A stretch of DNA of 64,000 bases from an uncultured archaeon (GTDB taxonomy: Archaea; Asgardarchaeota; Thorarchaeia; Thorarchaeales; Thorarchaeaceae). The notes below the pieces were generated by a model. That model made no database searches, had not been told where the DNA came from, and was given only the letters and a program-made list of their open reading frames with translations. Below, piece after piece: positions 21,711 through 40,024 of the stretch. A program made the translations under genes and the position numbers. Location: contig CAZLEV010000006.1 of NCBI GenBank assembly GCA_964558645.1, positions 32,001 to 96,000 of the forward strand, read 5' to 3'. The first letter of the stretch is position 1. The number at the start of each line of letters is the position of its first letter.

Positions 21711-21828
21711 TATAGACCACATTGAGATAGGCTTTACGATTAAAAAGGACAACCAAACCGATACCAGCACGATTAGAGCTGAAGGGCCTGCTTACACTTG
21801 TACGAAATAGACCTTAAAAGCAGAATCA

Positions 21829-23508
21829 ATGAGTTCTCAGGTAGTAGTTCTAGGAGTTGCAGAAGACATGCGTATGCTACGAACCACTTCGGAAACCTTT
21901 CCGGCCGAGAAAGAAATGATGAGTGATATCCCATATGTACTTCGAGTGGAGTTTGGGGCCCTTGAAGAAGAGGCAGAGAGAATCATCGGCAGGCCGATAG
22001 TGTGTTACAAGTGTGGTGGTTTTCTCCTCAGTGTGGATCAGATAATTGAGGAGGACAAGGTCGGCAGGCATTTCATCTGTTCCTTTTGTGGAACACTAAA
22101 TGTTATTGAGGGGAAGATAATCACTGCAGGGGATAATACCGACTTCGTTGTCGAGCCCCCTCGTGAGGTCGCAGAATCTCAGAAAGAACCAGTAAAGCAA
22201 TTTGGAGGGAGCTTTCTCGCACTCATAGACGTTTCAGGTTCTATGGCAGGCGCCAACCTCGCTGCTGTCAAGAGGAGTCTCAGGACATCAGTTGAGAGCC
22301 TAGCTAAAAACGCGCCAAACACCATGTTCGGCCTGATTGAATTCGAGAGTGGAGTCTTATTCAGAGACCTCCATTCGGGTGGAAAAATAGCCCTCCCGCG
22401 TAACTCCTATGCCAGTTTTCACGAGATACAGAAAGAAACCAAGAAGCTGATGGACCAGATTAGATTTCTGAGTGTTGGCGAGAATTCAGACAAGATCAAG
22501 AAGCATCTCAATGCATTGCGTGATCAAGGAGGAACGGCTCTCGGCCCCGCTGTTGCCATGGGATATACTATTGCAAAACACCGAGATGTGGGTCGTGTTG
22601 TGCTGTTAACCGATGGGCTAGCCAATGAGGGCATAGGGGCGCTGGAAGGCTACCAAGTCACTCCCGCAGCCAACTTCTACGAAGAAGTAGGGCTTCAGTT
22701 CATGGAAAACGGTACTGCAGTCGATGTTGTAGGCATTGCGTCGGGCGCCGGGATGGAGCTCAAGACATTGGGCCTTCTTGCAGAGGCTACAGGCGGGCAG
22801 ATGTACTATGTTACACCTAACGAGCTTGACCAGAGTATAGCGGAGTTGGCAGGCAGTTCTCTCCTTGGTCGGGATGTGGAAGTGCGACTGATTACACCCA
22901 CCGGTGTCAAAGTGAAAGATGCATCAGGGGTTTCGCGCGCGATTATTGAAGAACTGAGAACCAAAGGCGAGAGCAAAATCGGAGCAGTTGGGGAGAATCA
23001 CGAACTCTATTTCGAGATTGAACCCGAAAGTAGAATTGAGGCGGAAGATGTGCCCATTCAGGTTCAGGTGACCTATACCGATGCAGAGGGGGCCCGAAGA
23101 GTTCGGGCAGTGACAACCATACTTAAGGTTGCAAGGGATAACAAGGAATTGCTGGAAACCCTTGACCCCACCATAGGTGCAACGTTTGTGACTCAAAAAG
23201 CAGGAGAAGAGTCTTTCAGAGGGAATCGAGAGGGGGGGAAGAAACGTATTGCGTCTTTCAGAGCAGCAATGAATAAACAGGCCAAGTCAGCGCCAGGGCC
23301 AATTCAGAATCGGATGAATGAGATAGACAATGTCTTGGCTGAGGAAGAGGGTGAAATGGAGCGTTTGGATGATATGATGAAAGCTGCACCCGCTTCGGCG
23401 CCATCTACAGCAGCCGATCAGGCATACACCTCAGGACTTCAGCAGATGCGTCGTAGTTCGAAGCAGATGTTCGGCAAGAATAAGGCCGACGAAGAGGAAG
23501 AGGAGTAG
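21829..23508 (+). CDS. Sec23/Sec24-type zinc finger + VWA (trunk) + beta-sandwich + helical protein (CPRas-VWA-like)
   Basis: CYKC...FICSFCGTLN zinc finger; MIDAS DVSGS, GGTALGPA, LTDGLAN.G.G, AEATGG; QVQVTYTDAEGARRVRAVT. Confidence 0.8.
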   Translation: MSSQVVVLGVAEDMRMLRTTSETFPAEKEMMSDIPYVLRVEFGALEEEAERIIGRPIVCYKCGGFLLSVDQIIEEDKVGRHFICSFCGTLNVIEGKIITAGDNTDFVVEPPREVAESQKEPVKQFGGSFLALIDVSGSMAGANLAAVKRSLRTSVESLAKNAPNTMFGLIEFESGVLFRDLHSGGKIALPRNSYASFHEIQKETKKLMDQIRFLSVGENSDKIKKHLNALRDQGGTALGPAVAMGYTIAKHRDVGRVVLLTDGLANEGIGALEGYQVTPAANFYEEVGLQFMENGTAVDVVGIASGAGMELKTLGLLAEATGGQMYYVTPNELDQSIAELAGSSLLGRDVEVRLITPTGVKVKDASGVSRAIIEELRTKGESKIGAVGENHELYFEIEPESRIEAEDVPIQVQVTYTDAEGARRVRAVTTILKVARDNKELLETLDPTIGATFVTQKAGEESFRGNREGGKKRIASFRAAMNKQAKSAPGPIQNRMNEIDNVLAEEEGEMERLDDMMKAAPASAPSTAADQAYTSGLQQMRRSSKQMFGKNKADEEEEE

Positions 23509-23677
23509 CACTAAACAGACGGCCGTTTGTTCATCTTTCGCCTGTCTGTGGGAGAAACATGATTCCCACAGAATGCGCAAAAGAGATATGCATGAGGGGA
23601 CACACTGCCACAACTCTCAAATACCCAAGAGCGACCTAGAAACTGCTGACGCACTATCTAACAGTGGGGATTCACGG

Positions 23678-23968
23678 TTGATTAGCCAAGAGCGACTTGA
23701 TGCAATTCTAGCAGATCTTACAGCCCAGGAGGGCGTTAGAGGAGTCGTAGTCACAACCATGGAAGGTCTACCATTGAGCAGTGATCTTCCACCTGAAACC
23801 ACTGAAGCCGTCGCTGCAATACTGACCTCTCTGGTAGGTAAGGCACTTGATGCAGTTCGAGAGCTTAAGGAGGGGTCTTTGTCGTTCCTGACCCTCGATA
23901 CAACCGAGGGACAGATAAACATCGCACCGGATGTTAAGGAGGGCCTCATATTAGTAGTCCTCAAATAG
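23678..23968 (+). CDS. Roadblock/LC7 protein, DYNLRB-like (96 aa, no terminal helix)
   Basis: TTG start at 23678; GVRGVVV...EGLP..S, KA...VR, L.FL, I.APD. Confidence 0.85.
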   Translation: MISQERLDAILADLTAQEGVRGVVVTTMEGLPLSSDLPPETTEAVAAILTSLVGKALDAVRELKEGSLSFLTLDTTEGQINIAPDVKEGLILVVLK

Positions 23969-23993
23969 GAAGGTATCCAAGAGGTACACCATC

Positions 23994-24461
23994 ATGAGCG
24001 ATCCGAAAGCCTTTGACAAGATACTCACGGAGATTATTCGGCAAGATAAGGGAATCAAGAAAGTGATTCTTGTCGATAAGACTGGGCTGACAATAGCCAA
24101 TGTGAGCAAGTTGAGTTACTACCCTGTGGATGTGGACAGTATCGGTGCAATTGCGAGTGCCGTGTTTTGTGCTAGTGAAGAACAGGGTAAGAACCTGCAA
24201 ATAGGAGAGCTTGAGATTGTGACATCCGAGTTCTCGGAGGGGAAGATTTTCGCCTCGGCCTGTGGTAAGGGAGTTCTCTGTGTGGTATCAGAGGCAGAGG
24301 TCAATATCGGCCTCATTCGTCTGGTAATGAAGAAACAGGGTAAGCAACTGGCAGACGAACTGGACAAGTTCCTCGCAGTGGAACCAATGGCACCCAGCAA
24401 GGATCGCGAGCTTGACGAGGAAGACCTCAAGTCCGCCTTGGCCGAACTCGAGAGAGTTTAG
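23994..24461 (+). CDS. Roadblock protein, LAMTOR2/MglB-like, with acidic C-terminal helix
   Basis: PKA, ILVD..G..IA, GAIAS, EGK, VLC, VNIGLIRL; tail ELDEEDLKSALAELERV. Confidence 0.85.
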   Translation: MSDPKAFDKILTEIIRQDKGIKKVILVDKTGLTIANVSKLSYYPVDVDSIGAIASAVFCASEEQGKNLQIGELEIVTSEFSEGKIFASACGKGVLCVVSEAEVNIGLIRLVMKKQGKQLADELDKFLAVEPMAPSKDRELDEEDLKSALAELERV

Positions 24462-24751
24462 GTTCACATGTTCATGTCCGTGATCACTGGTACTCCCTTG
24501 ATATGTGGACCCCCAGTTCCAAAACCGGGAAAGGTCTTCCAAGCAGGGGTTGATTTCTTGGCGGGCCACACGACGGACAAAGGCTTTTATGAGACTAAAC
24601 TTCTATCACCTTCAACCTCCCGAGGCTAGGCCCGAAACTCGTGAGGATACTCTGACCTTTGTGGGTCGCCCCTGATGCAATTGCATCCGGCAAGTTGGAT
24701 CCTCTGGGTCTCATCGAACACGGGTAAGCAGTGAATCTACGAGGTGTTCCA

Positions 24752-25315
24752 GTGAGAAAGGACGACAAAGGGCGAATACATCTGAAGCTGGTATTCTATG
24801 GTCCAAGCTTAGGTGGAAAGACGACCGCTCTTCGCTGGCTTTATGGAAAAGTGGAAGGTTTACAGAAAGGAGAGTTCACTGCGATCGAGGATGAAACAAA
24901 CCGAACTCTGTTCTTCGACTATGTGCCAATGAGTGCAGGAGGGCGGGTCTTATTCGACGTTTTCACTGTTGCTGGTCAGAAACGGCACAGGCATCAACGA
25001 AAGGTGGTTTTACAGGGTACCGACGGAATTCTGTTTGTTGCAGACTCTTCACCCGATCAACGTGATGAGAATACGGAGAGTTTCGAAGAACTCAAGCTCT
25101 TTCTAGGGGATGCCTTGGGCCGGGAGATTCCCATTGTTGTGATGTTGAACAAACGAGACCTTCCCAACCGCATGTCGCGTGATGAGATGCTCGATCTACT
25201 GGGTCTGGGAGGCAATGTGCCCATTTATGAAACGATTGCTATCCAAGGCGTAGGAGTTAAGAGAGCATTTCAGGCTATAGCACGAGAAGTAATCCTCAAA
25301 AGGATGTACAAGTAG
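24752..25315 (+). CDS. mglA: MglA-family small GTPase
   Basis: G1 YGPSLGGKTT, RTLFFD, G3 TVAGQ, DGILFVADS, G4 NKRD; GAGGTG RBS before GTG 24752. Confidence 0.9.
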   Translation: MRKDDKGRIHLKLVFYGPSLGGKTTALRWLYGKVEGLQKGEFTAIEDETNRTLFFDYVPMSAGGRVLFDVFTVAGQKRHRHQRKVVLQGTDGILFVADSSPDQRDENTESFEELKLFLGDALGREIPIVVMLNKRDLPNRMSRDEMLDLLGLGGNVPIYETIAIQGVGVKRAFQAIAREVILKRMYK

Positions 25316-25331
25316 AGCCAGGTGAACTGAT

Positions 25332-25703
25332 ATGAGTGAATCCCGTGGAGAAACCCTCGAAGGTGTTCTAAATGAGCTACAGGGTAGTATCCCTGAGATT
25401 GAGGCCTGTGCCATTGTTAGTGTAGAGGGGTTGCCAATCGTGTCAGCCCTGCCCGCAGATGTTGATGAGGCAAAATTAGCTGCGATAACGGCTGCGATGC
25501 TAACTCTTGGTGAGAAGGCTGCAGTTGAACTAGGAAAGGGTGAGCTCGAACAGGTCAATGTAAAGGGCAGGGAAGGGTGGGTTCTTGTCATTCAGGCGGG
25601 TATGAACGCCTGTCTTACAGTTTCAACAACAGGCACCGCCAAACTTGGTCTTGTATTTCTTGATATGAAACGAGCAGCAGAGAAAGTCGCGATGATGATA
25701 TAG
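25332..25703 (+). CDS. Roadblock/LC7 (MglB-type) protein
   Basis: AIVS.EGL.I.S.LP..VDE...AA..AAML.LGE....EL..G.LEQV.VKG..G...KLGLVFLDM. Confidence 0.92.
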   Translation: MSESRGETLEGVLNELQGSIPEIEACAIVSVEGLPIVSALPADVDEAKLAAITAAMLTLGEKAAVELGKGELEQVNVKGREGWVLVIQAGMNACLTVSTTGTAKLGLVFLDMKRAAEKVAMMI

Positions 25704-25767: not shown

Positions 25768-26547
25768 GTGTGTTGCTCAGTGAATATCACAGGCCCCATG
25801 TACCGACTCTATGAGTATGTACTGAACAGACAGCTCAGTCGAGATAGAGCTCCAAAACATGTAGGAATAATACTGGATGGAAACAGACGATATGCTCGAG
25901 AACATGGCCATGATGTCCCATGGTTTGGACACCGCAAGGGTGCTCAAAAAGTCATGGACGTTCTCCGAATCTTGTGGGAAGCGGGCGTTAAAATCTGCAC
26001 ACTCTATGCCTTCTCTGTTGAGAACTTCCAGAGAAACAAACATGAGGTTTCTGAAATAATGGAGATTGCCAAGGAGAAATTTGCAGAGGTTGTAGATAAT
26101 CCAGACATTCACCGCCACAGAGTACAGATAAGGGCCATTGGCCGTGTGGATCTCCTACCAGCTGACGTGCAGCGGGCAATAGCTGCTGCCGAAGGAGAAA
26201 CCGCGGACTATGAGGAACATATTCTGAACGTTGCGATAGGCTATTCGGGTAGGGCTGAAGTAGTCGATGCAGTTCAAGCAATTGGAGCGAAGATTCAAGA
26301 TGGAGATCTTGCGCCATCAGAAGTGAACGAACATATTATCGAACAGCACCTCTACACATATGGCGTCCCAGACCCTGATTTGATAATCCGGACTTCAGGC
26401 GAAGAACGTCTCTCAGGGTTTCTACTCTGGCAGTCCGCCTATTCCGAGCTGTACTTTGCTCAAGTCTATTGGCCGGCGGTTCGAAGGATTGACATCTGGC
26501 GAGCTCTACGATCATATGAGCGAAGATCGAGAAGGTACGGAAAATAG
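25768..26547 (+). CDS. uppS: cis-prenyltransferase (polyprenyl diphosphate synthase)
   Basis: HVGIILDGNRR, YAFS.ENF.R, PDLIIRTSGE.RLS.FL.WQ motifs. Confidence 0.96.
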   Translation: MCCSVNITGPMYRLYEYVLNRQLSRDRAPKHVGIILDGNRRYAREHGHDVPWFGHRKGAQKVMDVLRILWEAGVKICTLYAFSVENFQRNKHEVSEIMEIAKEKFAEVVDNPDIHRHRVQIRAIGRVDLLPADVQRAIAAAEGETADYEEHILNVAIGYSGRAEVVDAVQAIGAKIQDGDLAPSEVNEHIIEQHLYTYGVPDPDLIIRTSGEERLSGFLLWQSAYSELYFAQVYWPAVRRIDIWRALRSYERRSRRYGK

Positions 26548-26632: not shown

Positions 26633-27868
26633 ATGATGCTTCCCGCACTTCAAGGAGAAGAAGTGGAATTGACACGAAACCCACTTGAAACATATCAAGG
26701 ACTTATCACGAGTACTCTGACCGACGAGATCCAATCATATATCTTAAAGGTCGTTGAGAGATATTCGGATGCCACCTTTGCTGATGAGAAGTTCTCCGTT
26801 CACTTGGGGCGTTTCGTGGAGCTTGTCTGTCGACTTATTTCGAACCTGAACAACCGGAAGGAGGCGACTCTGACTGATCTTATGCAAGCTGTTGACATTC
26901 TAGATTATTTTGCATCCACAACTCGATGGTGGAATATGACACGTTCATCGCCCGGGATAATTCTCCGGCCTGCAACACGAGAGCCACGTGAATTCATAAA
27001 GTCGGTTCCATCGGTGCGGCTAGGTAGTGAAACCATCAGCAGGATACAAGGTGCGTCAGACCGTCTTTCGTCATTTCTGAATGAGCACGAGATTGCCGGT
27101 TCGGATACCAGAGATCATCTACAACGTTCTATGGTGTCAGCATGGACCATCCTCAGTGCATTCTGCTGCAAGAGTCAAGGGCGCAATGTGTCTTCCGAAG
27201 TAGATTTCGAAACCGCATACGACATCCTCAGGATACTCCTCTTCCACACACCCCGCGTTGATTTTGTTGCACTAAGCGCGATTAGGAATATCGCCACCAG
27301 TTCTCGACTTCCGAAGATTGCTGACGTTGCCTTTTCACCCGGCTTTGAGAAGAAACTCGATTCATCGATAGCTGCGAAGCTGGAGGCAGCCCATGGTGAA
27401 TACCTCGGGGATGCAGGCGATACAGTCCCCAGAGTATCTCGTGCCATCTTGACAAACTCAATCAGATTGCTTGCACAGATTGAGAGTGTGAATATAGGTA
27501 TCAATAGAATAGAAGAGGACGACTATGATAGAGTGACCATGGGGGCCCTCAGCCTACTGGAGAAGGTCCGCATTGACCCGGAGATATTTCACGATGAAAA
27601 CGTTGTGGTTGGACTTTTCAAGAGGCTTACACCTGCAGAAGAGGACATTGGCGAGGGGCTGGCACTACTCACACGAAAACTGGAGAGTCTGATTGTTGAC
27701 TCCACAGGCAATCGCAATTTCCTGCTCCAACACGCAAGAGTGGTACCTCGACTAATTGCTTTGCTTCTTTTGATCTCGAGCGGCACCAAGTCACCCGAGG
27801 ATGATGGACTAAGAGATATCGATTTGAAGAGAGGTTTGATTCTGTTAGAGAACCTGATCAGTGATTAG
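26633..27868 (+). CDS. Hypothetical all-helical protein with four internal AAA-lid/histone-fold-like repeats
   Basis: Long ORF with an upstream TATA-like TTTATA; repeated long helix-loop-(x)D-helix motif. Confidence 0.7.
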   Translation: MMLPALQGEEVELTRNPLETYQGLITSTLTDEIQSYILKVVERYSDATFADEKFSVHLGRFVELVCRLISNLNNRKEATLTDLMQAVDILDYFASTTRWWNMTRSSPGIILRPATREPREFIKSVPSVRLGSETISRIQGASDRLSSFLNEHEIAGSDTRDHLQRSMVSAWTILSAFCCKSQGRNVSSEVDFETAYDILRILLFHTPRVDFVALSAIRNIATSSRLPKIADVAFSPGFEKKLDSSIAAKLEAAHGEYLGDAGDTVPRVSRAILTNSIRLLAQIESVNIGINRIEEDDYDRVTMGALSLLEKVRIDPEIFHDENVVVGLFKRLTPAEEDIGEGLALLTRKLESLIVDSTGNRNFLLQHARVVPRLIALLLLISSGTKSPEDDGLRDIDLKRGLILLENLISD

Positions 27869-38986: not shown

Positions 38987-39478
38987 GTGATCGGTTTGGT
39001 CAAGAAGAGTGACAAAATCAGGATTGTCAAAATACACAATGGAACCGTGATTGATCATATTCGTGCGGGTCATGCACTTGAAGTGCTACAGATCTTGGGA
39101 ATCTCCGGCAAAGAAGGAAATACGGTCACCTTGGCAATGAACATCTCAAGTTCCAGAATCAGCACCAAGGATATTGTGAAAGTCGAAGAGCGGTTCCTCG
39201 AGGATGAGGAGGTTGCACGCATAGCTCTCGTAGCACCCGAAGCAACAATCAACCTCATCAAGGATGACGAGGTTGTCCGGAAGACTCGCGTCAAGCTTCC
39301 GTCCACCTTCACTAATATAGTCCAATGTCCTAATACGCGATGTATAACCAATAAGGAACGTGAGCCCATAGAACCCAAGTACCAAGTTGTTTCCATGTCG
39401 CCGATACGAATCAAATGCCTGTATTGCTGGACCCTACTAGACGAGCACGAGATTGTAGAGCAGTTCACGGCGAACTGA
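38987..39478 (+). CDS. pyrI: Aspartate carbamoyltransferase regulatory chain
   Basis: NGTVIDHI, KDIVK.E, CPN..CIT, C.YC motifs. Confidence 0.96.
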   Translation: MIGLVKKSDKIRIVKIHNGTVIDHIRAGHALEVLQILGISGKEGNTVTLAMNISSSRISTKDIVKVEERFLEDEEVARIALVAPEATINLIKDDEVVRKTRVKLPSTFTNIVQCPNTRCITNKEREPIEPKYQVVSMSPIRIKCLYCWTLLDEHEIVEQFTAN

Positions 39479-39655
39479 GGCGATTAGATCCAAAATCCCA
39501 TCTGGAGAACTCGAGTGAACAATGTCCATGGTATAGCTTGTACTCTGACTGCGAAGTGCAGAAGAGAGAGCCTATATGCTGTGCTAACAGAAGATATAAA
39601 CGGGTCAGTTGAGAAGAGAGAATAGATTCGCAGAAGCCCCAGGAGAAGGAAAGAG

Positions 39656-40024
39656 ATGGTTGATGAATCAAGAATCAAAACCATAGTTGCCGATACAATG
39701 GCTGCAAATGCAGACATTCAAGGTATGATTGTATGTGATGCTGAGGGAAATGTGGTTTTTGGCCATACAATCACTGGTGACATCAAACACGGCGAAGTTG
39801 CCAATCTGGCTGTCAATATAGCCTCAAATTCGGCACAAATGGTCAGTGGGCTCGATAAGGGGGGCCTAAATGAGATAGCAATAGCGGCTGACAAAGGACT
39901 TGTCATTATCCTCGGCGATGTCAAGCTGGTTCTTGCAGCAATAGCTGGAGAGAACGCTCGGGAATCCATGGGTCTAATTAGGATGGCCGTCAAGCGCGCG
40001 CTAGTCAACATGCTAACAGAATAA
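39656..40024 (+). CDS. Roadblock/LC7 domain protein
   Basis: I.G.IV.D.EG.V...L..G.LNE..I....G...MGLIR pattern. Confidence 0.8.
   Translation: MVDESRIKTIVADTMAANADIQGMIVCDAEGNVVFGHTITGDIKHGEVANLAVNIASNSAQMVSGLDKGGLNEIAIAADKGLVIILGDVKLVLAAIAGENARESMGLIRMAVKRALVNMLTE

Follow-up and report, generated by a model that had tools for sequence, protein, structure and literature searches.

Results

The locus: five co-oriented genes and a displaced fourth roadblock gene

A stretch of 64,000 nt from an uncultured Thorarchaeaceae archaeon (the window; assembly GCA_964558645.1, contig CAZLEV010000006.1, positions 32,001-96,000 of the forward strand) was analysed. Between 21829 and 25703 it carries five consecutive open reading frames (ORFs) on the + strand, encoding a Sec23/24-like protein (hereafter Sec23-like), two roadblock proteins (RB1 and RB2), an MglA-type small GTPase and a third roadblock protein (RB3). 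All five are genuine genes, and their calls are correct (Table 1). A preliminary description of the sequence had listed them in this order and orientation; its gene identities were borne out by Pfam and PDB matches, and the gaps that it put at about 170 and 290 nt measure 169 nt (Sec23-like gene to RB1) and 290 nt (RB2 to the GTPase). It had also counted three different roadblock classes. RB1, RB2 and RB3 are indeed distinct, RB2 and RB3 being only 27-29% identical to RB1, but a fourth roadblock gene, RB4, had been missed. The gene order recurs in nearly every Thorarchaeota genome and is thus not due to chance.

The Sec23-like ORF (21829-23508) matches Pfam Sec23_trunk (E 8.5e-12) and Sec23_BS, with weak zf-Sec23 and VWA matches; in sequence the protein also resembles eukaryotic circularly permuted Ras (CPRas) proteins. 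A longer RB1 ORF from an ATG at 23573 (131 aa) was rejected, being unconserved and interrupted by stops in relatives. RB4 lies upstream of the Sec23-like gene, in divergent orientation, in 51/51 loci of the family with enough DNA. It has been rearranged away from that gene here and in G074, and is still adjacent in G073 of the same genus (G, L and f are our handles for genomes, loci and families). The displacement is probably an inversion of ~18 kb, seen at 21770-21829 and 39478-39656.

Table 1. Window coordinates of the genes and promoter-like elements (BRE, B recognition element).
Feature	Position	Strand	Remarks
Asgard Sec23/24-like (CPRas-type) gene	21868..23508	+	ORF open from 21829; likely start ATG 21868 from orthologues
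Promoter-like region of RB1-RB2 unit	23572..23623	+	TGCGCA palindrome 23574, BRE/TATA-like 23608-23623; conserved non-coding block; putative promoter
RB1, truncated LC7/DYNLRB-type roadblock, 96 aa, without C-terminal helix	23678..23968	+	TTG start; PDB 7F8F match
RB2, MglB/LAMTOR2-like roadblock, 155 aa, acidic amphipathic C-terminal helix	23994..24461	+	PDB matches
BRE/TATA-like element upstream of MglA	24577..24593	+	Consensus across 67 loci
MglA-type small GTPase	24752..25315	+	ORF from 24731; likely GTG 24752 start after GAGGTG element
RB3, full-length roadblock, 123 aa, without acidic tail	25332..25703	+	Pfam; PDB 7F8M, 9JUE
UppS, cis-prenyltransferase, constant downstream neighbour	25768..26547	+	Pfam; control for background synteny
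RB4, fourth roadblock, divergent orientation in relatives, then SMC-ScpA-ScpB	39656..40024	+	Displaced in this genome

The GTPase resembles bacterial MglA and is flanked by candidate regulators

In the PDB, the GTPase matches MglA of Myxococcus and Thermus best (E 5e-38) and Arf far less well. Its motifs comprise a P-loop, an intrinsic Arg in switch I, a TVAGQ G3 and an NKRD G4. The Arg stands beside the G2 Thr, in an RT pair that aligns to Myxococcus MglA; among 31 orthologues the Thr is invariant and the Arg is present in at least 90%. Compared with the TVPGQ that Group 1 has in place of DxxGQ, G3 keeps Thr, Val, Gly and Gln and has Ala for Pro throughout. The G1-G2 insertion is present, since the alignment to MglA is gap-free across this region. 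Intrinsic Arg, Thr-type G3 and G1-G2 insertion are traits of bacterial and Group 1 MglA proteins (PMC4316618), and the coupled roadblock gene that also marks this group is represented by RB2 and RB3, which flank the GTPase. Judged from its sequence, the GTPase is a Group-1-type MglA. Its short, charged N-terminus lacks the amphipathic helix expected of a Sar1/Arf-type partner, and it is the single MglA-type GTPase in the cluster, where a Rag-type system would have a GTPase heterodimer. MglA is 92-99% identical within the family, 85% identical to the sister family and 58-66% identical to most other families, as compared with within-family values of 77% for UppS and 65% for the Sec23-like protein. 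A second MglA-like GTPase (G000:C19:771-1610; 52% identity, with an N-terminal extension of ~90 aa) is found in nearly all genomes of the order.

RB1 matches PDB 7F8F (E 1.5e-23) and then the dynein light chain roadblock (E 1e-10). The first 40 residues of the 7F8F chain, which were those compared, are the same as in the syntenic RB1 of G087, and we infer that 7F8F is the Odin RBLC7 of PMC10933270. The top PDB match of RB2 is Myxococcus MglB, followed by LAMTOR2. The MglB match includes the tail, to which an acidic amphipathic C-terminal helix of RB2 aligns after a linker. In MglB, the acidic C-terminal tail gives allosteric exchange activity (PMC6785124). RB2 is thus a candidate GTPase-activating protein (GAP), and possibly an allosteric guanine nucleotide exchange factor (GEF), of MglA. 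The tail is widely conserved; it is replaced in f9 and f24, both without an MglA orthologue, and kept in four other families without one. RB2 stands alone, with a different acidic tail, in the f9/f24 loci L123, L124, L126 and L138. RB3 starts a median of 16 nt after MglA. These motifs, the flanking roadblock genes and the conserved order agree with the earlier proposal of a bacterial-type MglA switch that has a number of roadblock partners.

The roadblock-MglA core is pan-Asgard and ancient

In a sample of 301 Asgard genomes, many of them incomplete, an MglA orthologue was found in 189 and RB2 in 259. The order RB1-RB2-MglA-RB3 occurs in at least nine families (f1, f2, f7, f8, f12, f13, f15, f16 and f19). 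In the eight other families with this order, RB4 is usually directly upstream and there is no Sec23-like gene. SMC and UppS flank the cluster outside the family also, UppS again following RB3. We conclude that the roadblock-MglA core is ancient and pan-Asgard.

The RB2-MglA gap (24462-24751) is a hot spot for insertion; in 21/68 loci it holds inserts exceeding 500 nt. The inserts are unrelated genes of up to 3.9 kb (L036, L039, L060, L093 and L102 are among the loci). Such tolerance would suit an explanation in which the genes have no shared function and are passengers in a slowly rearranging block with SMC-ScpAB, UppS and an acyl-CoA synthetase, as would the equal conservation of unrelated neighbours and the presence of SMC and UppS beside the cluster in other families. 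Against this, the gap is 23-48 nt in the six loci measured outside the family, RB2-MglA-RB3 are held together in f22 although all flanks differ, and coupling of MglA to roadblock genes is the rule in prokaryotes (PMC4316618). We consider it very unlikely that the genes are mere passengers.

Promoter-like elements probably divide the cluster

A TGCGCA palindrome is found 60-200 nt (about 105 nt) upstream of RB1 in 60/62 loci, as compared with 0/54 loci upstream of the Sec23-like gene and 1/75 upstream of MglA. Its use as a mark of every unit of the cluster was rejected, the motif being specific to RB1. With separate conserved promoter-like elements before RB1 and MglA, three transcription units are likely, in keeping with the two or three envisaged earlier; UppS is probably co-transcribed with the cluster. 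No RNA was found in the gaps by Rfam and ARAGORN, and a scan for sigma-70 promoters and terminators, a method unsuited to archaea, stayed at chance level.

The Sec23-like gene is a family-specific neighbour

Synteny of the five genes holds within Thorarchaeota, the Sec23-like gene preceding RB1 in 56/58 informative loci of the family (one split copy counted). Unrelated adjacencies are kept equally well (RB4-SMC 49/50, RB3-UppS 69/69, UppS-next gene 64/65, a convergent pair 60/62), and retention of the Sec23-like gene therefore says little: it probably stays in place because the whole block is conserved. The gene has been lost or moved in G082, G079 and G005 (96-98% complete), in which MglA is still 93-97% identical.

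Linkage did not extend to other Asgard archaea. In 39/39 genomes outside the family with both positions known, the Sec23-like gene is unlinked from the cluster, lying 860 kb from it on the single-contig chromosome of G120. No RB1, RB2 or MglA orthologue was found in the 27 outside loci around a Sec23-like gene; in one of them a different roadblock-domain gene lies at a distance of two genes. Outside the family, Sec23-like genes are present in f2, f12, f16, f19 and f27 and, sparsely, in f9 and f24. Twelve families have an MglA orthologue and no Sec23-like match, while five f9 genomes have the Sec23-like gene with only weaker MglA-like paralogues. MglA of the sister family already has the switch I of the family studied here, and the Sec23-like gene of that sister family is unlinked. 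A quick tree of the Sec23-like proteins was built without the split gene of L068 and without some two thirds of the nearly identical rows from the family. It groups the proteins by family and agrees with linkage having been gained once and the gene having moved later in G005. A single insertion into a stable block is the best explanation for the position of the gene. As it moved in beside the switch in one family only, position alone is no proof of a primitive vesicle coat.

In the same tree L104, labelled Hermodarchaeota, nests among Thorarchaeota, probably through a labelling or binning issue. The split gene of L068 (L068:492-2318) results from a frameshift in one metagenome-assembled genome (MAG).

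The Sec23-like protein lacks the gelsolin domain and scores nearer to CPRas-type proteins than to Sec23/24

An AlphaFold2 model with a predicted local distance difference test score of 84 was used in place of an earlier, poor model from a shallow alignment. Together with Pfam it gives a beta-barrel, a Zn finger, a vWA trunk and a helical domain. The model aligns to yeast Sec23 residues 8-646 and to Sec24 (Z 26-29, root-mean-square deviation ~4 Å over ~500 residues). Its last residue falls at yeast Sec23 position 646 of 768, so that the gelsolin domain is absent. It is through this C-terminal gelsolin-like domain, which carries the Arg finger for Sar1, that Sec23 acts on Sar1. According to PMC11914678, all Asgard Sec23-like proteins likewise lack the gelsolin domain and have the other Sec23 domains.

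Four Cys and the MIDAS (metal ion-dependent site of adhesion; D121/S123/S125/T223/D249) are invariant in 50 sequences. The protein thus has the Zn finger-vWA module with MIDAS of CPRas proteins, and it lacks their fused circularly permuted Ras domain, being a stand-alone protein of 546 aa. In a search with the Asgard profile, CPRas proteins of eukaryotes and their Ras-less, CPRas-like counterparts came next after ~40 prokaryotic clusters, with 200-250 bits; a Ras domain is present in 24/109 of the nearest non-prokaryotic matches. Sec24 scored 68 bits and Sec23 26 bits. On these profile scores, and not on a tree, the protein is nearer to CPRas-type proteins than to Sec23/24, whose low scores may reflect their own faster divergence. 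The protein probably serves as a scaffold that depends on metal and has partners of its own; by analogy with CPRas and Sar1, a link to small GTPases is possible. The orthologue in SMTZ1-45 is annotated 'SEC24 family transport protein', and the family is thus known; Thorarchaeota Sec23/24 was reportedly first described by Zaremba-Niedzwiedzka in 2017.

The preliminary description saw the locus as encoding a single machine: MglA-GTP would recruit the Sec23/24-fold protein, which would be its effector or a proto-coat. Adjacency in the family and a true Sec23/24 architecture are consistent with this. Both eukaryotic branches of the fold, moreover, work with small GTPases, Sec23 with Sar1 and CPRas by fusion, and a few Sec23-like copies outside the family lie near other small GTPases. 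However, such GTPases occur in ~4/20 independent contexts, close to a rough chance estimate. The linkage is a single family-specific gain retained at background level, co-distribution with MglA is poor, and the promoter-like elements are separate. Neither the gelsolin domain of Sec23 nor the N-terminal helix of a Sar1-type GTPase is present. No nucleotide-dependent binding of Asgard Sec23-like proteins to an Asgard Arf was observed (PMC11914678), and the GTPase fused in CPRas is Ras, described as a eukaryote-specific derivative (PMC2430557). When the Sec23-like protein was modelled in complex with MglA, GTP and Mg, the score was 0.00, a result that speaks neither for nor against binding. We regard recruitment of the Sec23-like protein by MglA as improbable. 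We hold it just as doubtful that a GTP-dependent partnership with MglA or the roadblocks arose for the Sec23/24-CPRas-type protein in this family, giving a prokaryotic module of small GTPase and Sec23 fold in parallel to Sar1-Sec23 and the CPRas fusion. Nor does the gene behave as a required part of the switch: the roadblock pair's promoter motif is not found before it, and three near-complete genomes have lost or moved it.

Several f9 Sec23-like genes (L155-L158) have a co-oriented small GTPase gene one to three genes upstream, at a frequency near the rough chance estimate. A member of the Sec23-like family (P0147/L169), ~35% identical to the Asgard copies, was found in a bacterial MAG (Eremiobacterota), through transfer or misbinning. 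A more coat-like arrangement than that of the locus studied here was seen in L167 (5001-8049) and L168, which come from a different prokaryote and have archaeal neighbours (fibrillarin, Nop): there, a Sec23/24-like gene and the gene for a 485-aa WD40 beta-propeller downstream of it overlap.

Discussion

A proposed MglA switch with roadblock regulators

The cluster is genuine and conserved: an Asgard version of the MglA-roadblock switch, with a Sec23-like neighbour in one family. We favour, with a confidence a little better than even, an explanation in which an ancient MglA switch has the MglB-like RB2 as its GAP and the Sec23-like gene is a lodger. The core, with RB4 divergent from RB1-RB2-MglA-RB3, would be an ancestral Asgard small-GTPase switch. 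MglA has its own catalytic Arg and Gln, and would therefore need a roadblock dimer that repositions them and no Arg-finger GAP. An RB2 dimer may act as this GAP, and possibly as an allosteric GEF, as MglA cycles GTP, its acidic tail helix binding MglA distally as in MglB. RB3, RB1 and RB4 could be co-GAPs, localisers or a scaffold, like RomY and MglC in Myxococcus; RomY provides a precedent for tuning or placing MglA (PMC9481161). As its output, the switch would likely mark a site on the membrane that serves cell shape or polarity. The Sec23-like gene would encode a MIDAS scaffold, be transcribed on its own and have entered between RB4 and RB1 in the family's ancestor, without being required for the switch.

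Several observations weigh against this explanation. The match of RB2 to MglB is weak (E 3.5e-5). The nearest eukaryotic kin of the Sec23-like protein include Ras-fused CPRas proteins, and its gene, single-copy and ~65% conserved, is in place across 16 genera; in the present genome it stayed even when rearrangement removed RB4. Finally, RB4 and RB1-RB2-RB3 persist in f21 and f3 (L113, L118), where MglA is cleanly gone from the cluster. The four roadblocks are therefore not only MglA regulators, and their outlasting of MglA makes a shared roadblock scaffold a serious rival. The roadblocks would then form a Ragulator-like hetero-oligomer (e.g. RB2/RB3 plus RB1/RB4) that serves several GTPases, MglA being one client and the Sec23-like gene still a lodger. 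Consistent with this, RB2 is kept in families without an MglA orthologue and also matches LAMTOR2, while RB1 matches LAMTOR5/LC7. However, the solved Asgard roadblocks, truncated Odin RBLC7 included, crystallised as homodimers (PMC10933270), the GTPase is MglA and not Rag, the cluster has no LAMTOR1-like gene, and the two families with a replaced RB2 tail, f9/f24, have no MglA orthologue. We consider such a scaffold rather unlikely, and prefer RB2 as the GAP of MglA.

Comparison with known systems

As in the MglA-MglB systems of Myxococcus xanthus and Thermus thermophilus (PMC6785124, PMC9481161, PMC4316618), a Group-1-type GTPase with intrinsic Arg and Thr-type G3 is accompanied by adjacent roadblock genes, RB2 having an acidic MglB-like C-terminal helix. 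Unlike them, the cluster is archaeal, has four roadblock classes, one of the LC7 type, carries TVAGQ in place of TVPGQ, and has no RomR, RomX or SgmX in the locus.

The Sec23-like protein belongs to the same family as the Asgard 'Sec23-like' proteins of PMC11914678, with all Sec23 domains save gelsolin; the gene neighbourhood, invariant MIDAS and closeness to CPRas are not described in the accessible text of that account. It shares with COPII the Sec23/24 fold (Z up to 29) and a small GTPase nearby. It differs in being a single gene without the gelsolin domain, beside MglA, which has no amphipathic N-helix, and not Sar1; no Sec13/31 is present in the locus, to which this comparison was confined. 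With eukaryotic CPRas and Ras-less CPRas-like vWA proteins (PMC2430557) it shares a Zn finger-vWA-beta-sandwich with MIDAS, at 200-250 bits, although the GTPase is a neighbour, MglA and not Ras, and is not fused. Sulfolobus ArnA-ArnB (PMC12852372, PDB 8S05) has a similar vWA-beta-sandwich-helical core with MIDAS (Z 25.5). Unlike the Sec23-like protein, it is split in two, with ArnA supplying the Zn finger, is phosphorylation-controlled, and reaches only 41 bits with the profile.

The Asgard-wide linkage of several roadblocks to a small GTPase recalls Ragulator and the conserved operon of roadblock, Rab-like GTPase and DENN genes in Asgard archaea described in a preprint (bioRxiv 10.1101/2020.10.19.343400). 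In our cluster neither a DENN nor a longin gene was detected and Rag GTPase is absent, and the published operon appears to be another locus. Pfam DENN matched none of the cluster genes and nothing in the whole genome, which makes its sensitivity doubtful. A second cluster (G000:C19:8762-15091), comprising a roadblock, 1288-aa and 286-aa proteins and a GTPase, likewise without a Pfam DENN match, could be the published operon.

Significance

As supposed in the preliminary description, the parts are published Asgard proteins, and literature searches, whose coverage did not extend to subscription papers, found no description of the cluster. Matching Asgard GTPases to regulators is difficult, since in MK-D1 the GTPase genes and the roadblock genes generally do not share operons (PMC10933270). 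The cluster pairs one such GTPase with four candidate regulators, together across much of the phylum, so that tests of GAP and GEF activity and of heterodimers are directly possible; for one member type a crystal structure is already available (7F8F). The cluster bears on the path of roadblock platforms from MglB homodimers to Ragulator and dynein LC7. It also warns against reading a Thorarchaeota 'Sec23/24' gene as a COPII subunit, as the MIDAS is kept and CPRas-type proteins are nearer in sequence. A proto-coat link, if true, would be a major finding; the present evidence does not favour it.

Behind UppS, at 26633-27868 of the window, lies a gene for a 411-aa protein that is fixed in the family at ~49% identity and has no Pfam or NCBIfam match.

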